DNA of 64,000 nt from Candidatus Micrarchaeota archaeon (GTDB taxonomy: Archaea; Micrarchaeota; Micrarchaeia; Anstonellales; Bilamarchaeaceae), in the NCBI GenBank assembly GCA_016932815.1, contig JAFGCC010000017.1:3581-67580 (forward strand), written 5' to 3'. Numbering within the stretch: the first letter of the stretch is position 1; the number at the start of each line of letters is the position of its first letter. The notes under the pieces are model-generated. The model had not been told where the DNA came from, searched no databases, and saw only the letters and a list, made by a program, of their open reading frames with translations. Shown one piece after another: positions 1 through 49,468 of the stretch. A program made the position numbers and the translations under genes.

Positions 1-367
1 GATTGAAACAAGGAAAGCTGAAGCGCAGCTAAGGCTCGCAAGGGAAAAAGACAAGAGCGACCCGGATGTGCTGAAAATGGAGAAATTCGAGAGGGAAATC
101 TCCATGTGGGATTCTCAGCTCCAGCGCCTAATCAAGGGAGTAAGGCCGATGGCGGTGCTTGCATACGCAATGACCTCCTCCCCGGGGATCTCAAAGGAAG
201 CCGCGGTCGCAACCCTGCGCGCGCAGGTGCGCGAACTAAAAGTCCTCCTGCAGAACTCGCTAAACGTGCAGGTAGACCAGCTTGCTGCAGACGAGATGAA
301 GCGCTGTTTCGAGTGGGAATACGCATTCCCCTCAGGGCCCAAGGAATTGGAGGAAGCGCTAATATGA
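1..367 (+). CDS. 5'-truncated ORF (continues upstream of window); alpha-helical/coiled-coil hypothetical protein immediately upstream of HerA-like ATPase
   Basis: Frame containing ORF 68..367 is open from nt 2 (IETRKAEAQLRLAREKDKSDPDVLKMEKF...) with no in-frame stop upstream, so the ATG at 68 is probably internal; stop TGA at 365-367. Confidence 0.5.
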   Translation, partial: IETRKAEAQLRLAREKDKSDPDVLKMEKFEREISMWDSQLQRLIKGVRPMAVLAYAMTSSPGISKEAAVATLRAQVRELKVLLQNSLNVQVDQLAADEMKRCFEWEYAFPSGPKELEEALI

Positions 368-377
368 GGCGGTAAGT

Positions 378-1952
378 GTGGGAAGGCTCGCAGTAAGCAA
401 GGTGCCCAACAAGGATATCTCCAGCAGGAACCTCCTAGTGCATCCTCCGGAGCCGCCAATAGACATCCTCTGCAAGGACCCAACAAACTCAATTTACATA
501 GGAAGGACGAAGATGCTAAACGTCCCCTTCTACTGGAGCTACCAGGACGTTACCAACCCGCACATAGCGGCGGTGGGAATTACCGGTTCGGGTAAATCGT
601 ATTTCATCAAGACCTTTCTCAGCCGCGCTTCGTTTGTGTGGGACTCCAACGCCCTAATCATAGACTGGGCGGGGGAATACCGCGAATGGGTGCGCATGGC
701 GGGAGGAAAGGTAATAGCCCTCGGAAAAGGCTCCTACCTAAACCTCCTGGACCTAGGAGGGATGAAGCCCTATGACCGCATAAAGCAGGTAATGCGCACA
801 ATAGCAATCCTAACCGACATAGACCAGTATCCGGAGCAGAAGCGCCTGACCGAGCAGGCAATAGAAAAGGCATACACGGACAACAAGTTCAAGATGGACG
901 CAAGGGAGCAGCGGGACGAACTGGGAAGGCCCCTGCAGGCTCCCACCCTAAAAGACATAGTAAAAATACTCGAAGAAAAATCCTCGATGGGAACCTACGA
1001 GTTCCCAGCCGAGCTTGAAAACTCAATCTACCGCCTAAAGCAATTCACAAAGCCCGGTGAAGACTTCTTTGCCCAGCAGAGCACAGTAAGCTTAACGGAG
1101 CTAACAGAATCCGGGCTGGTCGCACTGGACCTATCCGGGCTTCCCGATGAGCGCTTCAGGGCGCTAGGGGCATTGGCGATGCTCCAGTTCATCAAGGAGC
1201 GCATGCGCGCAGCAGGCTGGGCGAAAGCCAAGGGCCTGCGCCTCATAGTCGTGCTAGATGAAGCGTGGAAAATCGGAAAAGACGAGAACTCCGATGCGGT
1301 CATGATTGTGCGTGAAGGGCGCAAGTATAACTTCGGATTAATAGTCGCATCGCAAAACCCCACGGACATAGCAGAGGCGGTCTTCTCGAATGTGGGAACA
1401 ACGTTCATACTAAAGGTAAAATTCGAAAAGTTCCTGGACTACCTCCAGGGCTCCCTCAATTTCAGCGAATTCATGAGGGAGGAAATCTCCAAGTTCGGGG
1501 TAGGCTCATGCGCAGTAAACATGTCGTTTTCGAGCGCGGCGCCCTATCCATCAACATTCCTGCTAGACAGGGTGGAAGGGGAAGAGCCCATGCGCGAATT
1601 CTTCCTGGAACTTGGAAAAGTGCTTACAAAGGAGCAGAGAGAGGAGATGGATATGGCAAGGAGTGTTTCGTTTAAGAAGGACAACCTGAAAATAAGGCTC
1701 CGCGAGTTCGGGCTCGGCGAAGCCAGGATAGAGGAAGTGGTTCGCCTCTTCGACCAGAAGAGCAGGCACATGGACATAGTGTCCTTTATCATCCTGCTTG
1801 AGCGCTTCGGGGTGGAGCGCTCCAACATAACCATGTTCCTAAAGGAAGTGGGGATAGAAGACACCACGATAATCAACATCTTCACGATGGCCGACAAGCG
1901 CAAGGCGGATATCCTAGACCGCGACATCACCCAGGTAATATTAGAGGAGTGA
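378..1952 (+). CDS. HerA/VirB4/FtsK-like P-loop NTPase (DUF87-type ATPase)
   Basis: Walker A 'VGITGSGKSY', Walker B 'LIVVLDEAWK', N-terminal 'IGRT..VPFYW' segment typical of HerA-family ATPases; track start is GTG (first in-frame ATG at 513); stop TGA overlaps start of next ORF. Confidence 0.75.
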   Translation: MGRLAVSKVPNKDISSRNLLVHPPEPPIDILCKDPTNSIYIGRTKMLNVPFYWSYQDVTNPHIAAVGITGSGKSYFIKTFLSRASFVWDSNALIIDWAGEYREWVRMAGGKVIALGKGSYLNLLDLGGMKPYDRIKQVMRTIAILTDIDQYPEQKRLTEQAIEKAYTDNKFKMDAREQRDELGRPLQAPTLKDIVKILEEKSSMGTYEFPAELENSIYRLKQFTKPGEDFFAQQSTVSLTELTESGLVALDLSGLPDERFRALGALAMLQFIKERMRAAGWAKAKGLRLIVVLDEAWKIGKDENSDAVMIVREGRKYNFGLIVASQNPTDIAEAVFSNVGTTFILKVKFEKFLDYLQGSLNFSEFMREEISKFGVGSCAVNMSFSSAAPYPSTFLLDRVEGEEPMREFFLELGKVLTKEQREEMDMARSVSFKKDNLKIRLREFGLGEARIEEVVRLFDQKSRHMDIVSFIILLERFGVERSNITMFLKEVGIEDTTIINIFTMADKRKADILDRDITQVILEE

Positions 1953-2494
1953 TCAAGATGGCGAGGATGTGCATAGTAAGCAGGAAGGAAGTCCCCGCAG
2001 GCGAGGGAACCCCAATCCGCGAGGACGCGATAATCCGCACAATACGCGTGATAAAGGGGAAGCTTGGAATCCTCCAGAACAACGAGCTGGTAGTATCAAA
2101 CGAAGCCCTCGAAGAATACACAAAAAAGAGGGAAAAGTTCGAGAAGATGGCGGTAATCCATGCAACAGTCGGAGCAATCCTGGTCGTTGCCTTCATATTC
2201 GGGCCCCTCCTCTTAGGCGCCCCGTTCAACCCCATGGGTGTATTGTTCTCGATAATACTGGGCCTGCTGGTTGCGGCACTGGCCCTCCTAAGCTACGTTC
2301 CCGCCCTAGAAGACGGGAAGGAGAGCACTGTTCCCACTCCCGGGCAGATTGTGAGCAGGCTAATGCCCCGCTCACTCGCAAAAAAGGCGCAGGAAGCGCC
2401 CAAGGCCGAGGCTCCCAAAGAAGCAGCAGCGCCCGCAAAGAAGGCCCCCCCAAAGCCCGCCAAGAAGCCTTATAAGAGGGGAAAGAGGAAGTGA
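1949..2494 (+). CDS. small membrane protein: 2 predicted TM helices plus Lys/Pro/Ala-rich basic C-terminal tail (histone-H1-like 'AKKAPPKPAKKPYKRGKRK')
   Basis: Hydrophobic stretches 'AVIHATVGAILVVAFIFGPLLLGA' and 'VLFSIILGLLVAALALLSYV'; GTG at 1949 overlaps ATPase stop, ATG at 1958; translational coupling. Confidence 0.6.
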   Translation: MIKMARMCIVSRKEVPAGEGTPIREDAIIRTIRVIKGKLGILQNNELVVSNEALEEYTKKREKFEKMAVIHATVGAILVVAFIFGPLLLGAPFNPMGVLFSIILGLLVAALALLSYVPALEDGKESTVPTPGQIVSRLMPRSLAKKAQEAPKAEAPKEAAAPAKKAPPKPAKKPYKRGKRK

Positions 2495-2500
2495 TGGACA

Positions 2501-3229
2501 ATGGCAGAAGAATCATCTTTGGCACCAAAAGTAGACGGCTTTAGAATGAAAGTGAAGCTCAAGGGAAAAGTCTCCGAGGTTGCAGCCGCCCTCAATTCGG
2601 TCTCATTCCTAAAAATCGCGCAGGAAAAAGAGGGCGTAGATGCCGCCTACGTTGAGAGCAGGAGCATAGACAAAACCCCCTACCTTTTCTCCCTAATGAA
2701 GTTCAAGCAGGACGAAATAGAGGTCGTATACACGGTCCCCTCAAACAATTCCCCTACCAAGAGGAAGCTTGACGTCCTGCGCTACCTGCTCAACCTGCTA
2801 ACCCTCGTTGAGCCCTACTATTCGATAGACAACAAGGTGGTATACCAGCTAATAGAAGAAACGATGATGCAGTTGGAAGAATACACCACCGGCGACTACA
2901 AGAAGCTCTACAAGGAGTACGACGTCCTAAAGCGCGAGGTGGAGAACCTTAGGCGCTCTTCTCGCATATACAAGACGCAGGTAAAGAGCCTCACAAAGGA
3001 GAACTATGAACTCAAGAACGAAAACGACGAACTCAAGGTGCGCTTCGAAAAGCTCCACGGAGGCGTTTCCGACAGCGTCCTGATGTCGAAGCTCCAGGAG
3101 TGGATTGCAGAGCACTCAGGCAGCGTAAACATCGTCGAGTTCGCAAAATACAACCGGGTTCCCGAAGCAAGGGTTGAAGACGCGCTAAACACGCTGGTTC
3201 GGCAGGGGTACCTGGAGCAGGTCCAGTGA
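2501..3229 (+). CDS. coiled-coil protein with C-terminal winged-helix-like domain
   Basis: Heptad-rich segment 'LKREVENLRRSSRIYKTQVKSLTKENYELKNENDELKVRFEKL' followed by 'VNIVEFAKYNRVPEARVEDALNTLVRQGYLEQV' (wHTH-like); stop overlaps next gene start. Confidence 0.55.
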   Translation: MAEESSLAPKVDGFRMKVKLKGKVSEVAAALNSVSFLKIAQEKEGVDAAYVESRSIDKTPYLFSLMKFKQDEIEVVYTVPSNNSPTKRKLDVLRYLLNLLTLVEPYYSIDNKVVYQLIEETMMQLEEYTTGDYKKLYKEYDVLKREVENLRRSSRIYKTQVKSLTKENYELKNENDELKVRFEKLHGGVSDSVLMSKLQEWIAEHSGSVNIVEFAKYNRVPEARVEDALNTLVRQGYLEQVQ

Positions 3230-5790
3230 GCAAAATGGATGGCATAGAAGGGCTTAGGATACGCAAGCGTTCTTTCTCGTTCGGGATAAAGCACAAGTAT
3301 TCCCCCGAACTCAAATTCAGGAAGGTCGAAAAGACCGTGGGAGAGAGGCTGCTAGAATCAATAAGCGCGCTCTCAAAGCCCAAGGAGAAAGTGGTGCTAG
3401 AAGGTGCGCAGGAGGCAAAGGAAGGGCTTGAAGAGGAATCCAATAACAACAACCACAAGCCCGCCCCAAAGCCGCTGATTAGCCCCCGCAATGTCCGCAG
3501 GATAGGGGGGGCAATCTTCCTCCTCCTTCTCCTCTCCGCTTCCGGGATAATCTACTTCCAGTCCATGGTTTCCGCCGCGGAGATTGTAGTGAACCCGCCC
3601 GTAACCTCTTTCGTTTCGGCAGAGGTCACCGCGCAGGACCTCCTTACTGCGAGCAAGGAGGGATTCTGGCGCCAGCCCTACCATAGCGCATATTTAAGGC
3701 TGGATGCGGAAGCGGGAGGAATAGATGAACTCCCGGTAACCGTGAACGTCTATGACAGGGTCGTTCCCTCATCCGTTTACCTTTTGCGCAGCTACCGCTA
3801 CCAGGCGGAGAACTACCCTCAATTCATCTCAGTACTCCGCGCAAACCTCTCTAGGTGGGGAATTAGCATAAACGAAGTGGGGCTAGACGAACTAGGCTCA
3901 CTGCCCTCCCAGTCATTGGTAATTGTCCCAAGCGGCTACATCCCTTCAGAAATGCTAATTGGGAGCGACACTAAGATAAGCGCCCTCCTCCAGAGAGGCG
4001 TTACAGTAATATACATGGGCCAGCCCTTCAACCGCATGTACAGCACAGAAGGAAGCGTGGTTCCGGGGAACACCGGATACCTCTCGCCCCTTCTGCTGCG
4101 CTTTGAAGAGGGCGTGTCCCTGCCCACCACTTCGGGCTTCCACCTAAAGAGCCCGCTATACTCGGTTGGCGACATCCGCGTAATGGGCTCTGCAAGCGTG
4201 GCCTATTTCGGCACGGGTGCAATGGTGTTCCTCCCCCAGACTCTTGATGGAGGCTGGTCTTCGCCGGAGTTCGCCGCAGACGACGTGCAGAAACTAATAC
4301 TTGAACTCCCCTGGCTCTCCCCGATAAGCACGGATTCGGGCAACCTCTCTTTTGTAAACGGGAGTGCCACTTCCGAATACTTTACCACCTCCTTCCTAGG
4401 AGACGGGGTGTATGCGCACTTACAAGCATACGACAATGCCACGGGCAACGGGTTCAATGAGGTAGTCTACCTGGAAAAGAGCACCCGCGGCGAAATCTAC
4501 ACTCTCGGGCACAGCATCTCGCCTTCGGCAATCGGCTCCACCCAGATGGACGTGGTAGTAGAGCTAAAAGAGGCGGGGGGAGAAGAGAGGCTCTTCTTCT
4601 CGGTGGTGCAGGACCTGCTTGAAGTTGGCCGCGAGCCAGTATCATCTAGCAAGCTCGCCCTCAATTCCGATGCGACTTTCTCATACACGTTTTCCCTCTC
4701 CCCGGGAGATTACATCCTCAACATCGTGGACAACGATGGCCGCAGGTATGCTAGGGCATACATGAGGGCAGGGGACGTTTCCATAGTAAGCGGGTATAGC
4801 CGCTACTCAAACGACCAGTACGAATTCAAGTTCTACGCGGACGGCAAGCCCCTCTCCCTCACAGGCGACGTATTCCTTGAGGGCTATTCCACCCCCACCC
4901 ACTTTGAGAATGCGCAGTCGGTGGTAGTGGATGCGGCAACCGTTGCGGGCGGCCCCCTCGCGGTAAACGAGGACCACGAGTTCCGCTTTGAAATAAAAGA
5001 ATACGAAACGACCGTAACAATCCGGAAGAGGGGGACTACCTCCATACTAACTAGCCCGTTCCTCCTAGGCGCAGTGGGAATCGCGGTTCTGGCTTTGGGA
5101 GTCGGTTTCCTCTTTGCGAGGAAGGGAGTGGCAATGTACGGCCTTGACATACCCGACTTCCCGCCCCAGAGCACGATAAAAGTGCCGCTTTCCAAGGAGA
5201 AGCTCCTTGGAGTCTTTACCAAGATAAACGAGCGCTACCGCTGGAAGAACACGCCGCTCAAACTAAGCGAAATCAAGCTGGGCTTCAAGGACCTCCTCCA
5301 TGAGGGCAAGCCGATATTCATCAGCGATTACAACCTAGAATACCTCCTCTCGCGCCTTGTGGGAATGGACCTGGTAAAAAGGGAAATCGACTATTACGGC
5401 CTATCTTCGTGGGAAGGGGAAACCGGAAAGAGCATCCGCTATCTTGCCTCCTTTAGGAAGCTCCGCGACATCTGCATAAACAACGCGGTGCCCTTTACCG
5501 CCATGGGCAAGGGCAAGGACTACGACTCTAAGATAACAGTGCTCGGCCAGGACATATTCGTCCACCTATACGACGATGCTAGCAGGGTAATACCAAACGC
5601 ATTGTCTTCGCTGCAAAACGGGATGAACATAGTCCTCTTTGAAGAGGAAGCGGAAAAGAGCGAGTTCTACGAATACCTCTCAAGCGGCTACCGCGGCGCA
5701 ACCGCGCTGAAACTTGAGGTGCAGGCAGGCTCAATCCTGATGAAGACCTGGGAAGAATTCGCGCAGATGATAAAGGAGATGAAAGTTTAG
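3226..5790 (+). CDS. large membrane protein: cytoplasmic N-term (~95 aa), TM, ~500-aa extracytoplasmic domain, TM, ~220-aa C-terminal domain
   Basis: TM candidates 'IGGAIFLLLLLSASGIIYF' and 'ILTSPFLLGAVGIAVLALGVGFLFA'; GTG at 3226 overlapping previous stop, ATG at 3235; last gene of coupled cluster. Confidence 0.6.
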   Translation: MSKMDGIEGLRIRKRSFSFGIKHKYSPELKFRKVEKTVGERLLESISALSKPKEKVVLEGAQEAKEGLEEESNNNNHKPAPKPLISPRNVRRIGGAIFLLLLLSASGIIYFQSMVSAAEIVVNPPVTSFVSAEVTAQDLLTASKEGFWRQPYHSAYLRLDAEAGGIDELPVTVNVYDRVVPSSVYLLRSYRYQAENYPQFISVLRANLSRWGISINEVGLDELGSLPSQSLVIVPSGYIPSEMLIGSDTKISALLQRGVTVIYMGQPFNRMYSTEGSVVPGNTGYLSPLLLRFEEGVSLPTTSGFHLKSPLYSVGDIRVMGSASVAYFGTGAMVFLPQTLDGGWSSPEFAADDVQKLILELPWLSPISTDSGNLSFVNGSATSEYFTTSFLGDGVYAHLQAYDNATGNGFNEVVYLEKSTRGEIYTLGHSISPSAIGSTQMDVVVELKEAGGEERLFFSVVQDLLEVGREPVSSSKLALNSDATFSYTFSLSPGDYILNIVDNDGRRYARAYMRAGDVSIVSGYSRYSNDQYEFKFYADGKPLSLTGDVFLEGYSTPTHFENAQSVVVDAATVAGGPLAVNEDHEFRFEIKEYETTVTIRKRGTTSILTSPFLLGAVGIAVLALGVGFLFARKGVAMYGLDIPDFPPQSTIKVPLSKEKLLGVFTKINERYRWKNTPLKLSEIKLGFKDLLHEGKPIFISDYNLEYLLSRLVGMDLVKREIDYYGLSSWEGETGKSIRYLASFRKLRDICINNAVPFTAMGKGKDYDSKITVLGQDIFVHLYDDASRVIPNALSSLQNGMNIVLFEEEAEKSEFYEYLSSGYRGATALKLEVQAGSILMKTWEEFAQMIKEMKV

Positions 5791-26775: not shown

Positions 26776-26924
26776 GGCCCGGGCCGTATTTGTTTTAATT
26801 GCAGAGGGTATTTAACCGTGAGGTGCCTCCCGCATGGCATCTCCCGGCAGGCAGGCGCGCTAAAAACCCTCCTTTGCGCAGGCTCCCAGATAGCATTAAT
26901 TACGTTTCCCGCCCATTTCCCCCC

Positions 26925-28508
26925 ATGGATTCCGTAGCCTACCCAAAGCTCGATTTTGCATGGAAGCAAACGTGCAAAGTGCTTTTCGGAGAAGAGCTTG
27001 GGGAACTAAGGGACTATGAAAAATGGCTCCTTTCCAACGTGGCATCGCCCAGGGAGGAACAATCCTCGCTCTCAGGCAGGAACGTGTATCTGGGAACGCA
27101 TGACTACTGCAAGGGCAGGTTCATCGGGTTGGGGGAAGCGGATTTCAACAAGAAATACGGGCCTCTCTCCATAAACGAAATCAAGGACATAGATTCAATC
27201 GTTTCCGCAATAAGCGAGCGCGCATTTTATGCAGGCAACATAGTGCTCGGAAACTCCAAGTTCATAGAAGGATGCGCAAACGTATTCGAGTGCCATTACG
27301 TATATGGCTCCAACAACGTAGACCACGCAAAAAACGTTGCGTATTCCTCGAATGTGAAGGAAGCCGAAAACCTGTTTGGGTGCAACACAATCGGGGAAAC
27401 GAAATTCGGGATAAAAAACTACGAAACATATAAGATAACCCGCTCGTTCGAACTCTGGAAATCATCCAACACAAGCGGCGCGTATTTCGTTTTCGGCCTG
27501 GATGGATGCTCGGACTGCATGTTCTCTTTCAATCTGCAGAACGCCTCCTACTGCATAGGCAACCTGCACCTTGGAAAGGAAAAATACGATTCCATAAAGA
27601 AAAAGCTTCTCTCCGAAATATCAGGAGAATTGAAAAAGAAGAAAACCTTCCCCTCGTTCCTGGATTTGGCAAAAGAGAGCATCCAGGATTCGGATTCACC
27701 AATCCCCGCATTCTCCCTTCCCCCCGCAAGGGAAGAGGAGACCGACAAGGAGGCAATAGAGGACGCATTCCGGAAAACAACGAAAATAGTGCTGGGCCGC
27801 GAACTCTCCAACATGGATTCGTATGCGGATTATTTCCTTTTGCACACCTGGAAAATGGACAAGGAGAACTCCTGCGTTTCCGGCAGGAAGCTATGGGTTA
27901 CGCACTATGCATCATTGGAGAGCGTTCCCAGAAACCGCCTCCTAAAGTGGGATGAGTCTTTTGAAATCGGCAGGAGGGTAAAGCTCGAAGAGGGCGAACT
28001 GGATTCCGTTTCCTCAATAGGGAAAAACCTCCACAAAATCGCCTTTTTCTGCCCGGAGCTGGAAGCGGGCGAGAACAAGAACAACATAGACACGCCCGTG
28101 CATGGAAAAAGCGTGAATTCGTACCGCAGCTCGCTTACCGGGCTTGGGAAGAACTACGTTTTCTCTTCATGGGCAAGAAGGTGCAACAACGTAATCGGGT
28201 GCACCCTCCCCTACCTCTCCGATTTCGCAATCAACACCTACTACTCCTCGCGCATCACGCGCGGGTTTGAGGTGGATGGCTCCAGAGACTGCATGGACCT
28301 CTACTTTTCGCACAACTGCGAAGCATTGCAGGAGGGGATGTTCTGCTTCAACGTGAAAAACCTTAGGAGGGCAATAGGGAACGCACAGTATTCTCAGAAT
28401 GAATACAAGAAGTTCAAGGGCGCAATCCTGGAGCAGGCCGCAGATGAACTAGAGAGAACCAAATCCCTAAAATGGGATATCTACAATATTGGATGCGCGG
28501 GAAAATAG
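26925..28508 (+). CDS. Cys-rich hypothetical protein with internally repetitive Cys/Asn-rich segments
   Basis: Track start 26799 is TTG; ATG at 26925; repeated motifs 'GCANVFECHYVYGSNNV', 'FGCNTIGETKFG', 'GCSDCMFSFNLQNASYCIGN', 'RRCNNVIGCTLPY', 'HNCEALQEGMFCFNVKN'. Confidence 0.5.
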   Translation: MDSVAYPKLDFAWKQTCKVLFGEELGELRDYEKWLLSNVASPREEQSSLSGRNVYLGTHDYCKGRFIGLGEADFNKKYGPLSINEIKDIDSIVSAISERAFYAGNIVLGNSKFIEGCANVFECHYVYGSNNVDHAKNVAYSSNVKEAENLFGCNTIGETKFGIKNYETYKITRSFELWKSSNTSGAYFVFGLDGCSDCMFSFNLQNASYCIGNLHLGKEKYDSIKKKLLSEISGELKKKKTFPSFLDLAKESIQDSDSPIPAFSLPPAREEETDKEAIEDAFRKTTKIVLGRELSNMDSYADYFLLHTWKMDKENSCVSGRKLWVTHYASLESVPRNRLLKWDESFEIGRRVKLEEGELDSVSSIGKNLHKIAFFCPELEAGENKNNIDTPVHGKSVNSYRSSLTGLGKNYVFSSWARRCNNVIGCTLPYLSDFAINTYYSSRITRGFEVDGSRDCMDLYFSHNCEALQEGMFCFNVKNLRRAIGNAQYSQNEYKKFKGAILEQAADELERTKSLKWDIYNIGCAGK

Positions 28509-28510
28509 AT

Positions 28511-29743
28511 TTATCTTCCCAGTTCCATCCGTATCCTCTTGTAGAGGTTGTCCTTGATAGTCTTCACAAGGAAGGAGTTCAGTTTCGAATCGTCCCTTTT
28601 GCGAGCCAGTTTGGTGAGTAAGAGGTACTCCTCTTTGGTATTCGCATAGATGTTCATCAGCGGAAAACCATTGTTCATTAGTACGTAATTCCAGATGAGC
28701 CTCGTTGTTCTGCTGTTCCCATCATCAAACGGGTGAATATGCTGGAATTCATTGTGCACGAATGTCGCAAATTCAACGATTTCTGCAATTCCATGGCCGC
28801 GCGAGTTGAAATCGTTTATCCTTTTGACCAGTACGTCCAGTTTGGGAAGAATCTCGGAGAAATGGGCCACTTTATACGCAAGGTTTCCGCGTATTGATAC
28901 ATCGGATGCCCTGATTCCTTCTTTTACCCCCAGGTTGTGGATTACATTCCTGTGAAGGTCCAGAATGAACTCAATGCTGAGGGGTTCGCTGATGTTGGAA
29001 ACCAGTTGGTTGATTGCATTGTAATAGTTCTTTACTTCGTTTGCTTCCCTGAGTTTTTTATCCTCTGGTACAATGTCCTCTAAAACCAGTTCCCTGGTTT
29101 CATCCAGCGTGAAGGTGTTGCCCTCAAGCTGGGTGGATGCGGAAGCGAATTCGATTCTCAGTTCCTCTTCAACATCTCCTAGCAGGAGATTGCGCTCAGT
29201 TTCTTCCACTTTTTTGAGCAGCTTTTTTATCTCTCCATAGTCCTCTTTTGCCATGCCGCCCTTACTTTCTTTTGTTCTGGGTTTCTCCCCAAAGAAGCTG
29301 AGGACTTCCTGCAGTATGGGGTCCCTTATGAATTTTATTTTCAATGGCTTTTTTGACGTTATCAGCGCCAGGTTTATGCGGTTGAGGTACGTTAGGTATT
29401 TCCTTGCTGTCTTGTAGCTTATGCCTTTGAAGTCCTTCAGGAACACTTCCTCTTTTGCCATGCCTTTTTTTAGTATCTTGGATAGCTCTACTGACAGAAA
29501 AATATTGTAATTTATCCCCCTGCCCCTACAGAATTTCATTATGTTAAAAACATTCCATGTTTTCGGGTTTTCCCTGTTTGGCTGGTATTCCCCTTTTTCT
29601 CTTTCTACTAGGCCTTCCCCTTCGAGTTCCTTCAAACGCTGGCGCGTTGATGATGGGCTTGAACCGATTTCCTCTGCAATGCGTTTGAGCTTGCTCTTTT
29701 TGAGGTTGAATAGGGCGAATAGGGCGTCCCATTTGCTTTTCAT
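28511..29743 (-). CDS. Fic/Doc-family protein with N-terminal winged-helix domain
   Basis: Fic motif variant 'HPFDDGNSRTTRLI' (canonical HPFx[DE]GNGRxxR with G->S); N-terminal 'SSPSSTRQRLKELEGEGLVEREKG' wHTH-like. Confidence 0.75.
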   Translation of the reverse strand: MKSKWDALFALFNLKKSKLKRIAEEIGSSPSSTRQRLKELEGEGLVEREKGEYQPNRENPKTWNVFNIMKFCRGRGINYNIFLSVELSKILKKGMAKEEVFLKDFKGISYKTARKYLTYLNRINLALITSKKPLKIKFIRDPILQEVLSFFGEKPRTKESKGGMAKEDYGEIKKLLKKVEETERNLLLGDVEEELRIEFASASTQLEGNTFTLDETRELVLEDIVPEDKKLREANEVKNYYNAINQLVSNISEPLSIEFILDLHRNVIHNLGVKEGIRASDVSIRGNLAYKVAHFSEILPKLDVLVKRINDFNSRGHGIAEIVEFATFVHNEFQHIHPFDDGNSRTTRLIWNYVLMNNGFPLMNIYANTKEEYLLLTKLARKRDDSKLNSFLVKTIKDNLYKRIRMELGR

Positions 29744-29763
29744 GTTTTTGCTTAGGCTCTAAA

Positions 29764-29803
29764 TGTTTATAAATATTCCTATATTAGCTCATTTATAAAT
29801 AAA
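29764..29803. promoter_or_regulatory. AT-rich divergent promoter region with two TATA-like elements
   Basis: 'tttataaata' at 29766-29775 and again at 29792-29801 between divergently oriented Fic gene and MBL gene. Confidence 0.4.
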
Positions 29804-29964
29804 TATTTACTTCTTTTCCTTTATTGGAGAGAAAATAAAGATTTTCCGTTATTCAGCGTGCAGAACTCATAGGTGAAACAATCGCAGGATTGCTATTGCC
29901 TAAATCTTTGGGATTCATGATGTGAGCGTATCAAACTTATTAATGTTGCCGAAGATAATAAGCC

Positions 29965-30729
29965 ATGAAACTGACCTTCTTGGGAACAGGCGGCGGCAGG
30001 ATAAACCTGATAAAGCAAATCCGCGCAACCGGCGGAATCTGCATCTCCGGGCCAAAGAACATACACATCGACCCAGGCCCCGGAGCCTTAGTTCGCATGA
30101 GGAACAAGGGAATGGACCCGCTCAAGACCGACATAATGGTCGTAACCCACTCGCACATTGACCACATAGGGGACGCAGGCGTCCTAATAGAAGGGATGAG
30201 CCACTACGCGCTCAAAAAGAAGGGCACGCTGATAGCATCCGAAGACGCCCTAGGTGGGGAGATAAAGGGGCAGAAGATAAGCGGGTTCCACCTCTCCCGC
30301 CTTGAAACTGTGGTGAGGGCGAAGCCCGGGGAAACATTTGAGTTCGAAGGGGGGAAAATCAGCTTCAAAAAGGCAGTCCACGACGATTTCCCCGCATTCG
30401 GCTTCGTATTGGAAATGGGCGGGAAAAAGATAGGATACACAGGAGATACCGAATACTTTGAGGAAATGCCCGAAGAATACGCGGGCTGCGACCTCCTAAT
30501 AATCAACGTGATGAAGCCCTTTGCAGACGAGTACAAGGGGCATTTGACAGCAGAAGACGCCTCGAAACTCATAGGGAGGGTGCAGCCCAAGCTCGCAATC
30601 CTTACCCACATGGGCCTCAAGATGCTCCGCTACCCCGCAGAAAAGCGCGCATCCGAAGTGGAAGCCGAAACAGGCGTAAGGGTAATTGCGGCAGAAGACG
30701 GGATGGAAATTGGGGAATCGGAATTCTAG
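29965..30729 (+). CDS. MBL-fold metallo-hydrolase
   Basis: 'VVTHSHIDHIGDAG' metal-binding motif. Confidence 0.75.
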   Translation: MKLTFLGTGGGRINLIKQIRATGGICISGPKNIHIDPGPGALVRMRNKGMDPLKTDIMVVTHSHIDHIGDAGVLIEGMSHYALKKKGTLIASEDALGGEIKGQKISGFHLSRLETVVRAKPGETFEFEGGKISFKKAVHDDFPAFGFVLEMGGKKIGYTGDTEYFEEMPEEYAGCDLLIINVMKPFADEYKGHLTAEDASKLIGRVQPKLAILTHMGLKMLRYPAEKRASEVEAETGVRVIAAEDGMEIGESEF

Positions 30730-37566: not shown

Positions 37567-39207
37567 ATGGCTGACAAGAAACCTCAATTGGTAGATGCCG
37601 GAAGCTACTACAAAATCGCCAACGACTACTACGAGAAAGGCGATTACGAGAAGGCGATTGAGAACTACAACATGGCCATACTCCTAAATCCCCTCTTCTC
37701 GGAAGCCTACTTCAACCGCGCACTAAGCTATTACCAGCTAAAAAACTACGAAAAAGCGGTAGCAGACTACACAGAAGCTTCGGAGCTAGACCCCAAGAAC
37801 CCCATTATATTCAACAACAAGGGGGACGCGTATTACAGGAGGCAGGATTACCACGGAGCAATAAAGGATTATGACAAGGCAATCATGCTAAACCCCAATT
37901 ACCTAAAAGCGTACTACAACCGCGCCCTCTCCTATGCATCCCTGGAAGACTACGAGAAGGCGGTTGAGGATTTTAGCAAGGTAGTCCAATTGAAGCCCGA
38001 CTTTTCCGAAGCCTACCACCTGCGCGGATTAGCATACGAATACGCGGGGGACGTGGATTCGGCGATTTCCGATTACGAAAAAGCCCTTGAATTAAACCCT
38101 TCATTGGCGGAAGCAAAAAGCCACCTAGAATCCGCAAAGAGCAAGAAGCAGAGCGGGGGAAGCGGAGGCGAAGGCGGAAAAGAAGGCGGAACTTCCGAAA
38201 TCAAGGTCCTAAGAAAGCCCCAGATGAACTTCAAGGACGTTGCGGGAATGGAGAAGATGAAAGAGGAAATCCGCGAGGCCGTAATCTACCCCATGGCAAA
38301 GCCGGAACTTGCAAGGAGGTACGGGAAGCTTGGGGGAGGCGGCATAATCATGTACGGCCCCCCCGGCTGCGGGAAAACCTACATAGTAAAAGCCGCGGCA
38401 GGAGAGTGCGATGCCGCATTCATAAACGCAAAGCTCTCAGACTTACTGGACATGTACGTGGGAAACACCGAAAAGAACATCCACAAGGTCTTTGAGACTG
38501 CGCGCAAGAACACCCCCTGCATCCTCTTCTTCGATGAAATAGACGCAATCGGCGGAAGGAGGGACCAGCAGGAGGGAGCGCAGTATATGCGCATGGCCGT
38601 AAACCAGATGCTCTATGAGATGGACGGGGTTGAAGCAAACAACCAGAACGTGCTCGTAATTGCCGCAACCAACGCGCCCTGGGACGTTGACCCCGCACTA
38701 AGGAGGTCCGGGCGTTTTAGCAAAACCCTCTACGTCCCGGAGCCGGATTTCGGCTCCCGCTCGGCAATAATCAGGATTCACGCCAAAAAGCGCCCCTTAG
38801 CAAGGGGGATTCCCTACTGGAGGCTTGCCCTTGCAACCTCCGGATATGCTTCTGCCGACCTCAAGGCGGTAGTGGATGAGGCTGCTGCAATCCCCTGGAG
38901 GGAGGCATTCAAGTCCGGAAAAGAGAGGAAAGTTAAAAGCAGCGACTTCATAAAGGCGATAAGGAAGAAGAAGAGCTCGCTTCCCCCCTGGTATGAGCAG
39001 GCCAAAAAGCAAATCGGCAAGCAGGAGGAAGTCACAATCGTAGACGGCAAAGAGCACAAGAAAGTGAGTGACAGCAAGATGGGCCCCGGTGAAAAGGAGG
39101 CCTTCAAGGACCTGCTCAACGTAATTAACAGCCGCAACAAGTGGTACAGCAAGGCATGGTTTTCCTTCCTAAAGCACACCGCGCTGCTAATCCCAATTCC
39201 AATCTAG
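37567..39207 (+). CDS. TPR-repeat / AAA+ ATPase fusion protein
   Basis: N-terminal about 180 aa of TPR repeats ('AYYNRALSY', 'AYFNRALSYYQLKNYEKA'), then AAA module 'IIMYGPPGCGKTY', 'ILFFDEIDA', second region of homology 'ATNAPWDVDPALRRSGRF'. Confidence 0.8.
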   Translation: MADKKPQLVDAGSYYKIANDYYEKGDYEKAIENYNMAILLNPLFSEAYFNRALSYYQLKNYEKAVADYTEASELDPKNPIIFNNKGDAYYRRQDYHGAIKDYDKAIMLNPNYLKAYYNRALSYASLEDYEKAVEDFSKVVQLKPDFSEAYHLRGLAYEYAGDVDSAISDYEKALELNPSLAEAKSHLESAKSKKQSGGSGGEGGKEGGTSEIKVLRKPQMNFKDVAGMEKMKEEIREAVIYPMAKPELARRYGKLGGGGIIMYGPPGCGKTYIVKAAAGECDAAFINAKLSDLLDMYVGNTEKNIHKVFETARKNTPCILFFDEIDAIGGRRDQQEGAQYMRMAVNQMLYEMDGVEANNQNVLVIAATNAPWDVDPALRRSGRFSKTLYVPEPDFGSRSAIIRIHAKKRPLARGIPYWRLALATSGYASADLKAVVDEAAAIPWREAFKSGKERKVKSSDFIKAIRKKKSSLPPWYEQAKKQIGKQEEVTIVDGKEHKKVSDSKMGPGEKEAFKDLLNVINSRNKWYSKAWFSFLKHTALLIPIPI

Positions 39208-46230: not shown

Positions 46231-47883
46231 ATGGCGCTCTCAGCAAGAAAAAAGCAAGGTGGGGTGGGGGAACAAACTAAGACCTCCGACAATCCGGTTA
46301 GATTGCTTGAGAATGTAAAAGCAGCAACCGGAGAGGACCTAAACGAAGCACAAATCCTAAATGATGCACAGCTTTGGGAACAATACCTCAATCCCTCACA
46401 AGAACGCATCGAGGAAGAAAAGAGCAAATTATATTCCAACCTTGCGGATGCAGGATTTTCCACCGAAGATGCGAGTAGGATATCAGAACAATATGGGCGC
46501 CTGCGCGCAAAAGCGGCAAAAGGGTCTCTGAGCAATGAAGAGCTGAGCGCTCTCTCACAGATTGCAGGTGTCGCAAAGGAGGCAAAAGAATCTGCTGCAA
46601 ACACCTCCGAAGAACGAGCAACAGCACTAGTTTCCCTATGGTCCCAAGCACAGTCAAAAACGGCGGACACAAGCTACTACGATTCAGAAGCAATAAAGAT
46701 GCGGGACATCTTCTATGCGATGCTAACTGAAAGCAACCCGAACCAGCAGAAAATAAACGAGCTGGCAAAGAACGACGAAAGCGTCCGCAGCGTGTTCATG
46801 ATGGACGCTTCCTTTGCAAGGGAATTATACTCCAAGGGGACCTCCGCAGACAAGGTGTGGCAAGCCCTAATACAAAGGCAACAGGAAACCACAACCGCAT
46901 TCATGAAAGATGGCGCGAACAGTAAGCTCCTGCATGACGCGGAAATTGAAGACCTTCGCGCAGTCCTGGGAGAACAGCGCAACGATGCAAACCAGAGGAT
47001 TGGTTATATTGAAGCGGGAGATTACGCCTCCCTTGGCAAGATGGACGAAATTAACCGGATGTATTCAAACGACGTAGTGCTGCGCATGCAGAACAAGCTC
47101 GGCCTAGCAAGCGAGTCGGGGAATTTCACCGACTTCCAGATGGCGCAGATGCAGTCCGTATTGGCAGATGTCGCACTTATAATGTCAAATGCCAGCCCGC
47201 TTGGGGCGGTTGAAGAAGACTCCTCTGCGGAAGTGGGAATAGCAACATTGGATTCATTCATAAACGAGCAGCAGAGGGCAATGGACGAAACGCAGACCCT
47301 GCAGTCGCTAGACGAGCAAGTCTCAGAACTAATGGCATTGGCAAGGGAAACTGTGTCCGGTGGAGTGCTAACCGAAGAAGCGCAGGAGAAGCTGGGAGAG
47401 CTTGGGCTTCCAATGGGTGCCAATAGCGCGGATGCCGAGAAATTCGTAAGGGGGGCAAGGGAACGCGCGAACGAAGAGATATCGCGGGTGCAGGAATTAA
47501 GGAGCGTCCAGAATGGCGGCGCATACGAGGTTTCCGCATTCTACTCCGAAGAGCGCGCCCTAGAAACAATTGATTCGGTAAAGAGCATAATCCGCGAAGC
47601 GCCCACAGAATTCTCGATTCTTGCCGCAGAGGAATTCAAGGGGGATGAACTAATAAACATCGGGACGGTTGAAGAGGTTCTTGGGCAAGCGGATTTCGGG
47701 AATGCCAAATCCCCCGAAACAGTCGTCTTAACTGCCCTTAGCAATCCCAACGACTCTGGGATGCGCGAGAAAATGGAGCAGGTGCTCTCAAACCCATTCA
47801 ACGTGGGGATACGGGAAGCGCTGCTCGAAGCTTATGCGCGCGCAGCTTCAGAACTCTCGCAGAAGCGCATCTCCGCAGGGTAG
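46231..47883 (+). CDS. hypothetical acidic alpha-helical protein B (cassette copy 1)
   Basis: 550 aa; homologous along its length to 50480..52186 (e.g. C-termini 'NPFNVGIREALLEAYARAASEL' vs 'NPLNVGIRAALLEAYARAVTEL', 'RVQELR' in both). Confidence 0.6.
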   Translation: MALSARKKQGGVGEQTKTSDNPVRLLENVKAATGEDLNEAQILNDAQLWEQYLNPSQERIEEEKSKLYSNLADAGFSTEDASRISEQYGRLRAKAAKGSLSNEELSALSQIAGVAKEAKESAANTSEERATALVSLWSQAQSKTADTSYYDSEAIKMRDIFYAMLTESNPNQQKINELAKNDESVRSVFMMDASFARELYSKGTSADKVWQALIQRQQETTTAFMKDGANSKLLHDAEIEDLRAVLGEQRNDANQRIGYIEAGDYASLGKMDEINRMYSNDVVLRMQNKLGLASESGNFTDFQMAQMQSVLADVALIMSNASPLGAVEEDSSAEVGIATLDSFINEQQRAMDETQTLQSLDEQVSELMALARETVSGGVLTEEAQEKLGELGLPMGANSADAEKFVRGARERANEEISRVQELRSVQNGGAYEVSAFYSEERALETIDSVKSIIREAPTEFSILAAEEFKGDELINIGTVEEVLGQADFGNAKSPETVVLTALSNPNDSGMREKMEQVLSNPFNVGIREALLEAYARAASELSQKRISAG

Positions 47884-47968: not shown

Positions 47969-49468
47969 ATGGCAGGAAAGCTCAAGGACCGCCCTCAGGA
48001 TGAGAATAAAGCTACTGCTGTTCCGGTTAAACTTGAATCCGAGGGAGCGTTAGGCCAGACACCGGAGCCTTCAGTTCCGGTAAAAGTCGAGAACGAGGAT
48101 ATAGAAAACCTGGTCCGCGCCCGTGTAAATAGTGTCCTCTCGGAAAATCCTGGGATGCGCTGGGAATCCGCTGTGCGTATGGCTACAGTTGAATGTAAAA
48201 TTAAGCTTGCGCAGATAAAGAACCTTCAGGTTACTGATAAGTTTAGCGAGGCTGAGAAGAGTTCCCAGATGGAGCATCTCACTAAGATGATTGATGCCCT
48301 CAATTCCGTGCCAGAATTTGCCCATACAAAATCACCAGTTCCCAAAAAGGCTTCTTTAGGACATCACTTTGAATACGTGACTTTCGCAGATCCTTCTCTC
48401 CTAGAACAGGATATTGCGACTGCAGAACGGCTTAGAATATCCCGCCAACCCTTTGTAGGGGTGCAATCTCCAGATGCGCTTGGCAGATTCATTTCAAAGC
48501 CCATTGAATGGCGCTATCCAAGATTTGGCAATTTTCAGCTTGATATTGTTGAATCAAAACCTGACAAAACGCATTTCCGCATTGGTTTTCCGGGTGGAGA
48601 GAAGGATGTTGCCTTCTCTGTTCCTCTTGAGCAGGTGGACGTGCTTGCGTTTAACTCAACGAAAGACACGCCTTTTAGAGTTACCGGGTGTGTGCTCAGG
48701 GGGAAGGACACACTATTCATCGCGCTGGAAACCCCTTCTGGCATTGTGGTGAAATCCTTGGTAATAGACCACGTGCGCAACGGAGCCAGAAGCATCGGGT
48801 TTGGAGTTACCAAGAAAGAAGGAACCCTCCTAGTTACAATTTCTCCGAAAAAATTATACGAGGGAAATTTCGTATACAGGTTGTCTTTTGGGCCTAATGG
48901 CGCCTCAACAGAGTATTACCGCTACACGAAGGATGTCCCTTCCGACACCAGAGTTAAAGAAGTGGGGTCTGGGGGCAAGCGGGAATTCGGTTTGTTCCGT
49001 CAAGAATTTGATTGCCTTTCCGAGTTGAGCCAATTTCAGATTTCAGATTTGGCAAAGACACTAGACTTGGCAGGTTACCAGTATGCTGATGCTATGAGCA
49101 TTATGGATTCAATTGTTGAGGAAGGGCGCGCATCTTACACAATAGCAAGAGCAGGAGGCGATAATCCAATGAATGCCAGAAATGTTGCGAGAGAAGCACA
49201 AACGAAACTTCTCATAAGCGTCTATAATTCATTAGAGCCTTCTTACCAAAAAAGATTCGAATCCGAAGCTATGCTTTTTCTGAGACAGAACGAAATCGCC
49301 GCGCGCATAACCCGGTTGGATGAAACATATTCCGCGCTTTTGGGATTGGATACCCTGTATCTCTCGAGTGAAGAGGACCAGAGGGAAGCGGTGTCCAAAT
49401 ACAATTTAATGGCCCCTCATGAAGCGGACGAATTTTTTTCCAGATTTAGTGGTTTTGGCACAAAATGA
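47969..49468 (+). CDS. hypothetical protein C (unique, between cassette copies); compositionally atypical
   Basis: 499 aa; N-terminal tandem 'AVPVKLESE' and 'SVPVKVENE' motifs matching N-terminus of protein A. Confidence 0.6.
   Translation: MAGKLKDRPQDENKATAVPVKLESEGALGQTPEPSVPVKVENEDIENLVRARVNSVLSENPGMRWESAVRMATVECKIKLAQIKNLQVTDKFSEAEKSSQMEHLTKMIDALNSVPEFAHTKSPVPKKASLGHHFEYVTFADPSLLEQDIATAERLRISRQPFVGVQSPDALGRFISKPIEWRYPRFGNFQLDIVESKPDKTHFRIGFPGGEKDVAFSVPLEQVDVLAFNSTKDTPFRVTGCVLRGKDTLFIALETPSGIVVKSLVIDHVRNGARSIGFGVTKKEGTLLVTISPKKLYEGNFVYRLSFGPNGASTEYYRYTKDVPSDTRVKEVGSGGKREFGLFRQEFDCLSELSQFQISDLAKTLDLAGYQYADAMSIMDSIVEEGRASYTIARAGGDNPMNARNVAREAQTKLLISVYNSLEPSYQKRFESEAMLFLRQNEIAARITRLDETYSALLGLDTLYLSSEEDQREAVSKYNLMAPHEADEFFSRFSGFGTK

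Follow-up and report, generated by a model that had tools for sequence, protein, structure and literature searches.

Here we show that a five-gene operon on the chromosome of a Micrarchaeota archaeon (DPANN) encodes a two-piece relative of the conjugation/DNA-import motor together with three partner proteins lacking any known match, and that this combination is essentially universal in the sampled Micrarchaeota, which are tiny symbiotic archaea. We interpret this motor as a split CedB, with gene 1 supplying its front half (TM helices and N-terminal domain) and gene 2 its ATPase half. We tentatively read the operon as an envelope-spanning translocation machine of Ced/type IV secretion descent that has become fixed in the chromosome, a reading which we regard as quite possible but short of probable. 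The original prediction had proposed a DNA-translocation or surface-assembly apparatus; its ATPase does prove to be Ced-related, and DNA, as in the related Ced and conjugation systems, would be the most likely cargo. No description of the five-gene operon was found in the literature searched.

Gene order and conservation of the operon

All five open reading frames lie closely packed on the + strand and span positions 2-5790 of the window (the whole 64,000-nucleotide stretch that was analysed), with the following features.

2..367, + strand: gene 1 ('orf0'), its C-terminal 121 codons, truncated at the 5' end by the start of the window (translation)
378..1952, + strand: gene 2, P-loop ATPase of the HerA/VirB4/CedB class, 524 aa
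576..602, + strand: Walker A motif GITGSGKSY, ATPase residues 67-75 (G67, G70, G72, K73 and S74 invariant)
1248..1268, + strand: Walker B motif VVLDEAW, ATPase residues 291-297 (V292-W297 invariant)
1575..1949, + strand: conserved helical C-terminal extension of the ATPase, ~125 aa (ortholog alignment)
1958..2494 (alternative GTG start 1949), + strand: small 2-TM membrane protein
about 2138-2314, + strand: 2-TM hairpin of the small protein (hydropathy)
2315-2491, + strand: variable basic tail of the small protein
2501..3229, + strand: soluble coiled-coil/winged-helix protein
residues 1-~120 of that protein, + strand: conserved N-terminal domain
2858-3070, + strand: coiled coil, residues ~120-190
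3089-3226, + strand: C-terminal winged helix, residues 197-242
3235..5790 (alternative GTG start 3226), + strand: large protein with 2 TM helices, 851 aa from ATG 3235
before 3493, + strand: basic cytoplasmic N-terminus of the large protein
3493-3576, + strand: TM1 of the large protein, residues 90-117 (hydropathy)
3577-5034, + strand: ectodomain of ~490 aa, with an alpha/beta domain and beta-sandwich domains
5035-5136, + strand: TM2 of the large protein, residues 604-637 (hydropathy)
5137-5787, + strand: conserved cytoplasmic C-terminal domain of the large protein

The gaps between genes measure 10, 6 and at most 5 nt in the window, with medians of 2, 4, 5 and 12 nt over orthologous loci, and spacing of so few nucleotides suggests co-translation. 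The 4-nt overlaps originally described at 1949 and 3226 exist only with the GTG starts; orthologs and the NCBI annotation, where the large protein is MBN2122108.1 (851 aa), use ATG 1958 and ATG 3235, which leave 5-nt gaps, and an SD-like GAGGAG lies 8 nt upstream of ATG 1958. The genes are tightly coupled whichever starts are chosen, and their order and spacing are conserved in relatives, bearing out the proposal that the one-strand cluster is a single operon. It does continue upstream as expected, but only for the remaining ~150 codons of gene 1: the next gene in close relatives is purB, and upstream of gene 1 there was nothing of the pilin, VirB6-like protein or NurA that had been suggested as further components.

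The same five genes occur in the same order in essentially all of 80 species-representative Micrarchaeota genomes whose contigs are long enough to contain them (two of the set gave no match to the small protein), so the arrangement is not due to chance. The order is fixed across these 80 species, and the flanking genes vary. The operon is single-copy, phylum-wide and set in a housekeeping context, with purB on one side, GT4/prs/pyrBI on the other, and tRNA synthetases and enolase nearby; GC content is uniform and divergence across the sampled species looks vertical. ATPase identity across Micrarchaeota is 64-91%, on par with core metabolic enzymes and equal to or above that of purB and pyrB (it exceeds purB in 36 of 39 paired genomes), and some ATPase orthologs carry inteins around Walker A and Walker B. 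Both traits would be expected of core housekeeping genes more than of a system for DNA uptake. Within the operon, conservation declines from the ATPase (70%) through gene 1 (58%), the coiled-coil protein (45%) and the small protein (34%) to the large protein (31%), a gradient in keeping with an engine conserved in the cytoplasm and an outer part exposed to the surroundings.

A probable split CedB/VirB4-type motor

Judged by its sequence, gene 2 is a P-loop ATPase of the HerA/VirB4 superfamily whose nearest characterised families are CedD, CedB and VirB4, in agreement with the HerA/FtsK/VirB4 class originally assigned to it. Pfam DUF87 (55.3 bits vs a gathering threshold of 23.2; 1.3e-14), AAA_10 (47 vs 27.5) and P-loop_TraG (32.1 vs 25.8) all score above their cut-offs, and the two Walker motifs read from the window, together with an R-x-G-R-K...SQ motif, are invariant in 13 orthologs, as befits the FtsK-HerA superfamily/DUF87. 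With the ATPase as a tblastn query, 2571 of 2803 plasmid matches fell on conjugative plasmids, mostly in traC (the TraC alignment covers ~80% of the query), and the VirB4 C-terminal domain in the PDB (4ag5) aligned over residues 55-342. The best NCBIfam matches were CedD (7e-23; 81.1 bits vs a cut-off of 600), CedB (2e-20; 72.7 vs 700) and the VirB4-like CD1110 (4e-18; 65 vs 325), all far under cut-off and spanning only the C-terminal ATPase halves of those models. The ATPase thus reaches about a tenth of the scores required of CedB and CedD equivalogs, and it also misses the VirB4 family models (TIGR00929, 39.6 bits vs 643; TraC, 58 vs 567); that every Ced and VirB4 model score lies so far below its family cut-off counts against a machine derived from Ced or type IV secretion.

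Gene 2 comprises the ATPase half only, with no TM helices and no N-terminal domain. Its C-terminal extension matched no Pfam family, the (HhH)2 repeats of Topo V being matched weakly (E 0.034), and an HhH-like repeat pattern there is an unsupported guess. A paralogous 370-aa DUF87 ATPase of Micrarchaeota is the last gene of an operon that also encodes a pair of giant surface proteins with Laminin_G_3, and a 1004-aa PA14-like protein precedes a distant relative of the ATPase.

The other half appears to lie in gene 1, which is ~270 aa at full length in orthologs (e.g. L001:833-1648) and consists of a 2-TM hairpin (helices at 8-27 and 32-53) followed by a probable cytoplasmic VirB4/CedB-type N-terminal domain. 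In hhalign, its profile aligned with the N-terminal ~290 aa of fused relatives of 870-940 aa (Prob 92.4%, 231 collinear columns); these match the CedB model across profile positions 13-587 (E 1e-34 to 1e-42) and sit in operons with CedA1 (PF27251)/CedA genes. When an AF2 model of gene 1 was searched with Foldseek, R388 TrwK/VirB4 accounted for six of the seven top PDB matches (prob 0.98-1.0, E 0.03-0.1). CedB and CedD join TM helices, a VirB4-like N-terminal domain and an ATPase (PMC11868833), and since gene 1 appears to encode the 2-TM anchor and N-terminal domain of this type, the motor is best described as CedB in split form. The link to Ced is therefore stronger than the original prediction could know.

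Partner proteins and the proposed machine

The small, coiled-coil and large proteins have no detectable known relative in searches that included Pfam, NCBIfam and PADLOC, consistent with the earlier remark that the partners have no obvious match in known Ced, Ted and conjugation systems. Hydropathy assigns two TM helices each to the small and large proteins, as first described, and none to the ATPase or the coiled-coil protein. No operon protein has more than two, and a protomer set totals six TM helices plus the ectodomain, a topology backed by charge and sequon bias.

The N-terminal domain of the small protein is cytoplasmic and ancestrally a CxxC...C..H zinc ribbon, a conserved feature of orthologs that has degenerated in the window copy, where the motif is lost. 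From the zinc ribbon and the basic tail, its termini are predicted to be cytoplasmic, opposite to those of VirB2-type pilins. The histone-H1-like Lys/Pro/Ala tail, once put forward as a DNA-binding segment, is indeed present in the window, but its length varies between 2 and about 100 aa, and about one ortholog in four has virtually no tail; not being conserved, it does not qualify as a core element for binding DNA.

The coiled-coil protein, which is soluble and, as first described, ends in a winged helix, is more persistently associated with the ATPase than any other partner, adjoining it in the distant lineages L084 (E 3e-37) and L087 (E 2e-29), where the small and large genes are missing. 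Its coiled coil gives sub-threshold matches to ZapB, DivIC and YabA, and its winged helix resembles that of the CdvB C-terminus (2xvc, E 1.5e-3) and, in 36 of 45 orthologs, that of ESCRT-II EAP30. The likeness to protein-binding winged helices (CdvB, ESCRT-II) is at least as great as that to DNA-binding ones, leaving the type ambiguous. With neither a conserved tail nor a clear winged-helix type, no partner has a demonstrable DNA-binding domain, which counts against the translocation machine that we propose. The large protein does have an extracellular domain between its two TM helices; this ectodomain is fast-evolving and rich in glycosylation sites, and the most conserved region of the protein is its cytoplasmic tail.

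In the machine that we propose, gene 1 would provide the membrane hairpin and VirB4-like N-terminal domain, and would hold beneath the membrane a presumably hexameric ring of the gene 2 ATPase. Three lineage-specific partners would join this ring: the Zn-ribbon 2-TM protein, the coiled-coil/winged-helix protein as a putative dimeric adaptor, and the large 2-TM protein, which may dock on the motor by its conserved cytoplasmic tail and would span the cell envelope with its glycosylated beta-sandwich ectodomain. ATP hydrolysis would then push a polymer, most likely DNA and possibly DNA acquired from a host or partner cell, through the single membrane. Against Ced/type IV secretion ancestry also counts the content of the operon and ±10 kb around it in loci L001-L003, where Pfam and NCBIfam detected no multi-TM pore resembling VirB6 or CedA, no pilin of the VirB2/CedA1 kind, and neither a coupling protein nor a relaxase; VirB3 and VirB8 were absent from the same regions (Pfam, NCBIfam, precomputed Pfam), and PF27251 (CedA1), which the precomputed Pfam includes, matched no operon gene in these loci. 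CedA or CedA1 genes may lie elsewhere in those genomes, beyond the ±10 kb examined.

Alternative readings and known systems

A core cellular role is a serious rival, given how strongly the operon is conserved and that it lies among housekeeping genes. It might encode a housekeeping pump that moves DNA during chromosome segregation or cell division and is comparable in function to FtsK or Streptomyces CmdB. Its ATPase, anchored in the membrane, would clear chromosomal DNA from the division site or partition it there, and the coiled-coil/winged-helix protein would link the ATPase to the division apparatus. We consider this unlikely. The single-copy, phylum-wide distribution, an ATPase at least as conserved as purB and pyrB, and the inteins speak for it, as do the ZapB-, DivIC-, YabA-, CdvB- and EAP30-like features of the coiled-coil protein and the chromosome-segregation and septation defects that follow deletion of cmdABCDEF (PMC2782261). 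However, the matches to ZapB, DivIC and YabA are generic heptad matches; the ATPase fails as an FtsK/SpoIIIE protein, having no TM helices and a motor-domain score below threshold (PF01580, 16 bits vs 24, residues 47-81 only, i.e. the P-loop); its nearest relatives lie in Ced-like operons and not in division clusters; no ftsZ, cdv, par or seg gene is adjacent in loci L001-L003; and a glycosylated, fast-evolving ectodomain of ~490 aa is not obviously required for an internal pump.

It is likewise doubtful that the operon assembles or secretes a surface structure (a filament, an adhesin or an S-layer-associated complex), its VirB4-like ATPase extracting or inserting membrane or surface proteins and the large protein serving as structural part or substrate platform. 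VirB4 has an established role in pilus biogenesis, where it extracts pilins (PMC13463995), and the Laminin_G_3 operon of the DUF87 paralog, the PA14-like gene ahead of the distant relative, and a GT4 glycosyltransferase adjacent at 15 of 57 loci would suit such a role. Yet no operon gene is pilin-like, with no PF27251 match recorded, the small protein is predicted to have the reverse orientation of VirB2-type pilins, and the large protein is not itself secreted, since it has TM anchors at both ends.

A HerA-type repair helicase module (HerA-NurA-like) or HerA-based anti-phage defence is very improbable and largely refuted. The ATPase and the HerA-NurA end-resection complex belong to one superfamily and have the Walker B/arginine-finger region in common. 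Among PDB sequences, the C-terminal part of the ATPase matches HerA structures best, and the PADLOC models HerA, DndH and mad8 match the ATPase. The likeness is nevertheless superfamily-level only, with HerA equivalog models giving 37-47 bits vs cut-offs of 800-970 (about 5%) and no HerA HAS-barrel match. There is no HerA-NurA clustering, the upstream neighbours being gene 1 and purB, and no NurA, Mre11, Rad50, Sir2 or DUF4297 neighbour in loci L001-L003. None of the four partners matches PADLOC, and the machine is embedded in the membrane through gene 1. Phylum-wide fixed synteny in a housekeeping context is unlike defence islands; for Sir2-HerA, DUF4297-HerA and Dnd/DndH systems, there is neither a cognate effector nor defence-island context, PADLOC matching the ATPase alone. 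That the operon is the transfer machinery of an integrated element, whether viral or of the conjugative kind that VirB4/TraC-like ATPases typify, is extremely improbable and for practical purposes refuted, given the housekeeping flanks, uniform GC content, presence with vertical-looking divergence in all sampled species, lack of any integrase, relaxase or replication gene at the locus, and lack of any relative in 2.9 million viral contigs searched with family-specific patterns.

Returning to a machine of Ced/type IV secretion descent, its closest characterised counterparts are CedB and CedD of the crenarchaeal Ced DNA import system (Sulfolobales), which belong to the same ATPase clade at profile level and have the same module set (PMC11868833); both systems are chromosomal, not plasmid-borne, and relaxase-free. 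In Micrarchaeota, however, TM helices and N-terminal domain are encoded separately from the ATPase, which carries an extra C-terminal domain of ~125 aa, and three unrelated partners stand in place of CedA (a pore with 6-7 TM helices), CedA1 (a VirB2-like 2-TM pilin) and CedA2; the operon is constitutively syntenic across a DPANN phylum, whereas Ced is encoded at dispersed UV-inducible loci. Gene 1 and the ATPase have their nearest unsplit relatives in the fused CedB-like ATPases of uncultured archaea (L086, L089), single polypeptides that also bear a winged helix, fused at the C-terminus, and a PD-(D/E)xK-like domain. Alongside CedA1-domain genes, their operons hold a 60-65-aa TM protein and a ~430-aa protein, and none of the Micrarchaeota partners is detectable in them.

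Likeness to VirB4 (TrwK/TraC) extends from the ATPase domain, which aligns with TraC and 4ag5, to the gene 1 model, which resembles the N-terminal region of TrwK and whose TM hairpin plus N-terminal domain recalls VirB3-VirB4 fusions; the Micrarchaeota operon differs in its split motor, its housekeeping chromosomal context and its lack of VirB6, VirB8, VirB2, VirD4 and relaxase. The Streptomyces operon cmdABCDEF, which encodes the VirB4-like CmdB and five membrane proteins, is similarly chromosomal and lineage-conserved and pairs its ATPase with uncharacterised membrane proteins (PMC2782261), but it is bacterial, has a developmental phenotype with chromosome segregation, and homology of the membrane partners is not expected. 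An analogy, not a whole-system homology, is offered by the Patescibacteria (CPR), where a phylum-wide chromosomal type IV secretion system is likewise VirB4-centred, relaxase-free and lineage-wide in ultra-small host-dependent cells (PMC12102498). This bacterial system keeps recognisable MPF-FATA components (VirB6 and others), whereas the Micrarchaeota operon keeps the ATPase modules only. The Patescibacteria system, which is reportedly essential to growth as an epibiont (PMC12102498), provides a precedent for a relaxase-free chromosomal machine in Micrarchaeota.

Operon layout and chromosomal setting

The operon in the window comprises five genes on one strand, whose boundaries were obtained by ORF calling.

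Genes of the operon (ORF calling, with translation for gene 1)
2-367, plus strand: gene 1, 5'-truncated ORF cut by the window start
378-1952, plus strand: ATPase, 524 aa
1949/1958-2494 (alternative starts), plus strand: small protein
2501-3229, plus strand: coiled-coil protein, 242 aa
3226/3235-5790 (alternative starts), plus strand: large protein, 851/854 aa

According to the junction sequences, intergenic gaps in the window measure 10, 6 and ≤5 nt. The tight coupling described in the original prediction holds under either choice of start, but its 4-nt overlaps require GTG starts, whereas the starts in orthologs and in the NCBI record correspond to the ATGs at 1958 and 3235. A Shine-Dalgarno-like GAGGAG motif lies 8 nt upstream of the ATG at 1958, and the NCBI record of the large protein (MBN2122108.1, JW721_03560) is identical to the window ORF from residue 4. 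Because a convergent GT4 glycosyltransferase gene has its end at 5792, the operon ends at 5790. At its other end it continues upstream of the window, as anticipated; in the orthologous Micrarchaeota loci L001-L003, from orthologs 78-91% identical to the window ATPase and used here for upstream and flanking context, the missing part is the remainder of gene 1, a protein of ~270 aa with two N-terminal TM helices, preceded by purB. Hydropathy assigns two TM helices each to the small and the large protein (90-117 and 604-637 in the latter) and none to the ATPase or the 242-aa protein.

PRPP synthetase and pyrB follow directly downstream in the window, with pyrI annotated between the two in orthologous loci. 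Other genes include two class I tRNA synthetases, enolase, a Na/H exchanger and one tRNA, GC is even across the window, and the remainder of the window is ordinary chromosome. The GC minimum (0.448 vs ~0.52-0.55 elsewhere) falls at 28001-30000 and overlaps a 410-aa ORF on the minus strand (28511-29743). At a Pfam threshold of E <= 1e-5, five large ORFs of 499-667 aa go unmatched (26799-28508, 46231-47883, 47969-49468, 50480-52186 and 56063-58066), three of them nearly consecutive on the plus strand. The protein encoded at 37567-39207 joins TPR repeats at its N-terminus to a domain of AAA ATPase type.

A probable CedB/VirB4-type motor divided over two polypeptides

The assignment of the ATPase to the HerA/FtsK/VirB4 class is borne out by Pfam models DUF87, AAA_10 and TraG P-loop, all above thresholds, and by the predicted Walker A (GITGSGKSY) and Walker B (VVLDEAW) motifs, both present and invariant in orthologs. 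Its top NCBIfam matches are CedD (7e-23), CedB (2e-20) and VirB4-like CD1110 (4e-18), all confined to the C-terminal ATPase halves of the models and far under the cut-offs, with HerA models scoring lower still. Among PDB sequences, the VirB4 C-terminal domain (4ag5) covers residues 55-342, and HerA structures cover the Walker B/arginine-finger part. Conjugative plasmids accounted for 2571 of the 2803 matching records in a plasmid search, with traC the gene mostly matched. The conserved, helical C-terminal extension of ~125 aa matched no family; its reading as an (HhH)2 DNA-binding domain was rejected as unsupported, since the search gave no more than a Topo V match (E 0.034) and scattered matches of single members.

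The 121-aa gene-1 fragment recovered only fragments as a query, and a chimera of full-length gene 1 and the large-protein C-terminus recovered both families. A profile search for ATPase relatives, exhaustive over 1.84 billion cluster representatives, yielded, beyond the Micrarchaeota cluster, relatives of 480-515 aa, a 370-aa paralog group, and eight proteins of 690-940 aa in which the ATPase part begins near residue 285. The gene-1 profile aligns collinearly with the N-terminal ends of the long proteins (hhalign Prob 92.4%, 231 columns). These proteins in turn match positions 13-587 of the CedB model, including its N-terminal domain (E 1e-34 to 1e-42), and the known architecture of CedB and CedD is TM, VirB4-like NTD and ATPase (PMC11868833). 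Gene 1 and the ATPase are therefore very probably a CedB/VirB4-type motor divided over two polypeptides.

Two of the long fused proteins sit in operons with genes for PF27251 (CedA1)-domain proteins, one an 84-aa pilin-like and the other a 291-aa multi-TM CedA-like protein. These operons, at L086:6659-12396 and L089:168-5578 of uncultured archaea, look like undescribed Ced-like systems; besides the PF27251 proteins (84 aa; 291 aa, multi-TM) they encode a TM protein of 60-65 aa, a protein of ~430 aa that belongs to no family, and a polypeptide of 888-913 aa in which TM, NTD and ATPase are fused and followed by a C-terminal winged helix and a PD-(D/E)xK-like domain. A module shared with this C-terminal winged helix and nuclease-like part of the fused relatives was rejected for the coiled-coil protein, the ATPase C-terminus and the large protein alike (hhalign Prob < 1%). 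In a Micrarchaeota MAG (GCA_028866715.1; L090:1-8113), a second, shorter DUF87 ATPase paralog (370 aa; MDE1868435.1) is the last gene of an operon that also codes for three proteins lacking annotation and a pair of giant Laminin_G_3 surface proteins (>747 and 1073 aa), and that may represent a related surface-protein machine.

Partner proteins and conservation across Micrarchaeota

Small-protein orthologs share a TM hairpin preceded by a CxxC...C..H zinc ribbon at the N-terminus; the window protein has lost the ribbon cysteines (1958-2140), which most orthologs keep. The histone-H1-like basic tail to which the original prediction gave weight is not conserved: its length ranges from 2 to ~100 residues, and roughly one species in four has next to none of it. 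Given a cytoplasmic ribbon and tail, the topology would be opposite to that of VirB2-type pilins, and precomputed Pfam annotations of the orthologous loci record no PF27251 match. A candidate fusion of the small and coiled-coil proteins in locus L080 was rejected on account of a stop codon.

The coiled-coil protein begins with a well-conserved domain, continues with a heptad region and ends in a genuine winged helix (window 3089-3226). Sub-threshold matches of the latter include the CdvB (archaeal ESCRT-III) C-terminal winged helix (PDB 2xvc, E 1.5e-3), the ESCRT-II EAP30/Vps36 winged helix in 36/45 orthologs, and TrmB, MarR and PCI; the ESCRT-like matches may point to binding between proteins or to a cell-division link. 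The coiled-coil protein is also the partner linked most persistently to the ATPase, which it follows in distant lineages. At L084 (7196-10198) gene 1, the ATPase and the coiled-coil gene occur without small and large genes at the locus, and at L087 (3673-6070) only the ATPase and coiled-coil genes of the five are found. Since these distant lineages keep the ATPase and coiled-coil protein, that pair represents the older core, to which the small and large membrane proteins seem to have been added in Micrarchaeota.

In the AF2 model of the large protein, a disordered basic N-terminus is followed by TM1, an alpha/beta domain, several beta-sandwich domains and TM2, and then by a cytoplasmic helical (wH-like) domain and an alpha/beta domain. 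The ectodomain has pLDDT mostly of 75-93. Within the protein, conservation is highest in the cytoplasmic C-terminal domain. Profiles of gene 1, the large and the coiled-coil protein found no significant family in PDB, Pfam, NCBIfam or PADLOC.

Every ATPase homolog at 64-95% identity carries a Micrarchaeota, Micrarchaeia, Bilamarchaeaceae or Anstonellales label. When one genome per GTDB species was scanned, 328 stretches proved to encode a relative; the best 80 are all Micrarchaeota, and on these 80 loci the five proteins were placed by tblastn. The order gene 1, ATPase, small, coiled-coil, large was identical wherever the contig was long enough, the small protein was missing from the matches in only two loci, and median gaps over orthologous loci were 2, 4, 5 and 12 nt. 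The flanks are variable (purB adjoins the operon in 30/64 loci, GT4 in 15/57) and the order is fixed, and the five-gene block is therefore a self-contained unit. A conserved tie to nucleotide-metabolism genes, being only partial on the purB count, was dropped as functional evidence.

Median identity per protein, computed against one reference genome
ATPase: 70%
pyrB: 68%
purB: 66%
Gene 1: 58%
Coiled-coil protein: 45%
Small protein: 34%
Large protein: 31%

Few gene sets in Micrarchaeota are as conserved as this operon, whose ATPase exceeds purB. Two ATPase orthologs outside the window (P0252 and P0253) contain inteins, one directly after Walker A (following GITGSGKS, in a 1196-aa protein) and the other just ahead of Walker B (preceding VVDEAWK, in a 1026-aa protein). 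Inteins are usually located at highly conserved sites in important proteins.

Proposed function and comparison with known systems

The system is very probably a split CedB/VirB4-type membrane machine. In the best-supported picture, gene 1 would anchor the ATPase ring beneath the membrane, and each protomer would gain four further TM helices from the small and large proteins. The coiled-coil adaptor would engage the motor together with the conserved cytoplasmic tail of the large protein, whose variable, glycosylated ectodomain would cross the envelope. We infer that the proteins form a complex, as well as its oligomeric state, cargo and direction; judging by homology with Ced, which imports DNA (PMC9905601; PMC11868833), and with conjugation, DNA would most likely be the cargo. 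The statement as a whole, including translocation of DNA or another polymer, is tentative, falling a little short of an even chance. The apparatus for DNA translocation or surface assembly first proposed is partly supported, and the underlying observation is confirmed and extended.

The operon could conceivably encode a lineage-specific trans-envelope import machine of Micrarchaeota, and perhaps of DPANN relatives keeping the ATPase and coiled-coil core, although we consider this doubtful. Such a machine, a Ced or conjugation apparatus domesticated and rebuilt with a new channel and outer part, would combine the split motor with three new proteins, pull nucleic acid or other host-derived polymer from host or environment into cells of reduced metabolism, and be indispensable to symbiotic life. 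Two other readings are each improbable: a division- or segregation-linked DNA pump, for which Streptomyces cmdABCDEF offers a precedent (PMC2782261), and a surface-assembly or secretion machine, hinted at by the paralogous Micrarchaeota DUF87 operon with giant LamG proteins. A straightforward assignment to Ced has three points against it: the CedA pore and CedA1 pilin that define Ced are both absent from the operon, family scores are sub-threshold, and the level of conservation looks like housekeeping. Both alternatives therefore stay in play. Repair of the HerA-NurA kind, defence against phages and a mobile element can effectively be discounted; L001-L003 have no gene for NurA, a pilin or a VirB6-like protein upstream of the operon, and the viral contigs searched contained no relative of the ATPase.

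All five proteins carry only the database names "hypothetical", "ATP-binding" or "DUF87", and the searched literature contained no paper linking Micrarchaeota, Micrarchaeum or Mancarchaeum to Ced, VirB4, HerA, DUF87 or FtsK. The operon bears on how DPANN acquire host material and on the roles of their many conserved "hypothetical" membrane proteins. Read as a split CedB/VirB4 motor joined to a new set of channel and ectodomain proteins, it offers a testable candidate host-interaction or DNA-handling machine. It would extend the Ced/Ted/T4SS family beyond TACK archaea and show the motor reused with wholly different membrane partners; were chromosome segregation its role, it would supply a long-sought FtsK-like activity in archaea.

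Closest in working are Ced/Ted and VirB4-based machines, yet on the membership tests the operon qualifies as none of them. It is best filed among VirB4/CedB-driven membrane machines, set apart by its split motor, its new partners and its vertical inheritance throughout a DPANN phylum. In ecological terms it is closely analogous to the chromosomal T4SS, likewise lacking a relaxase, that Patescibacteria have retained as a whole (PMC12102498). The chromosomal T4SS of Saccharibacteria is reported to be indispensable to their symbiotic life, and the Micrarchaeota operon would, if the import reading is true, be its archaeal counterpart.
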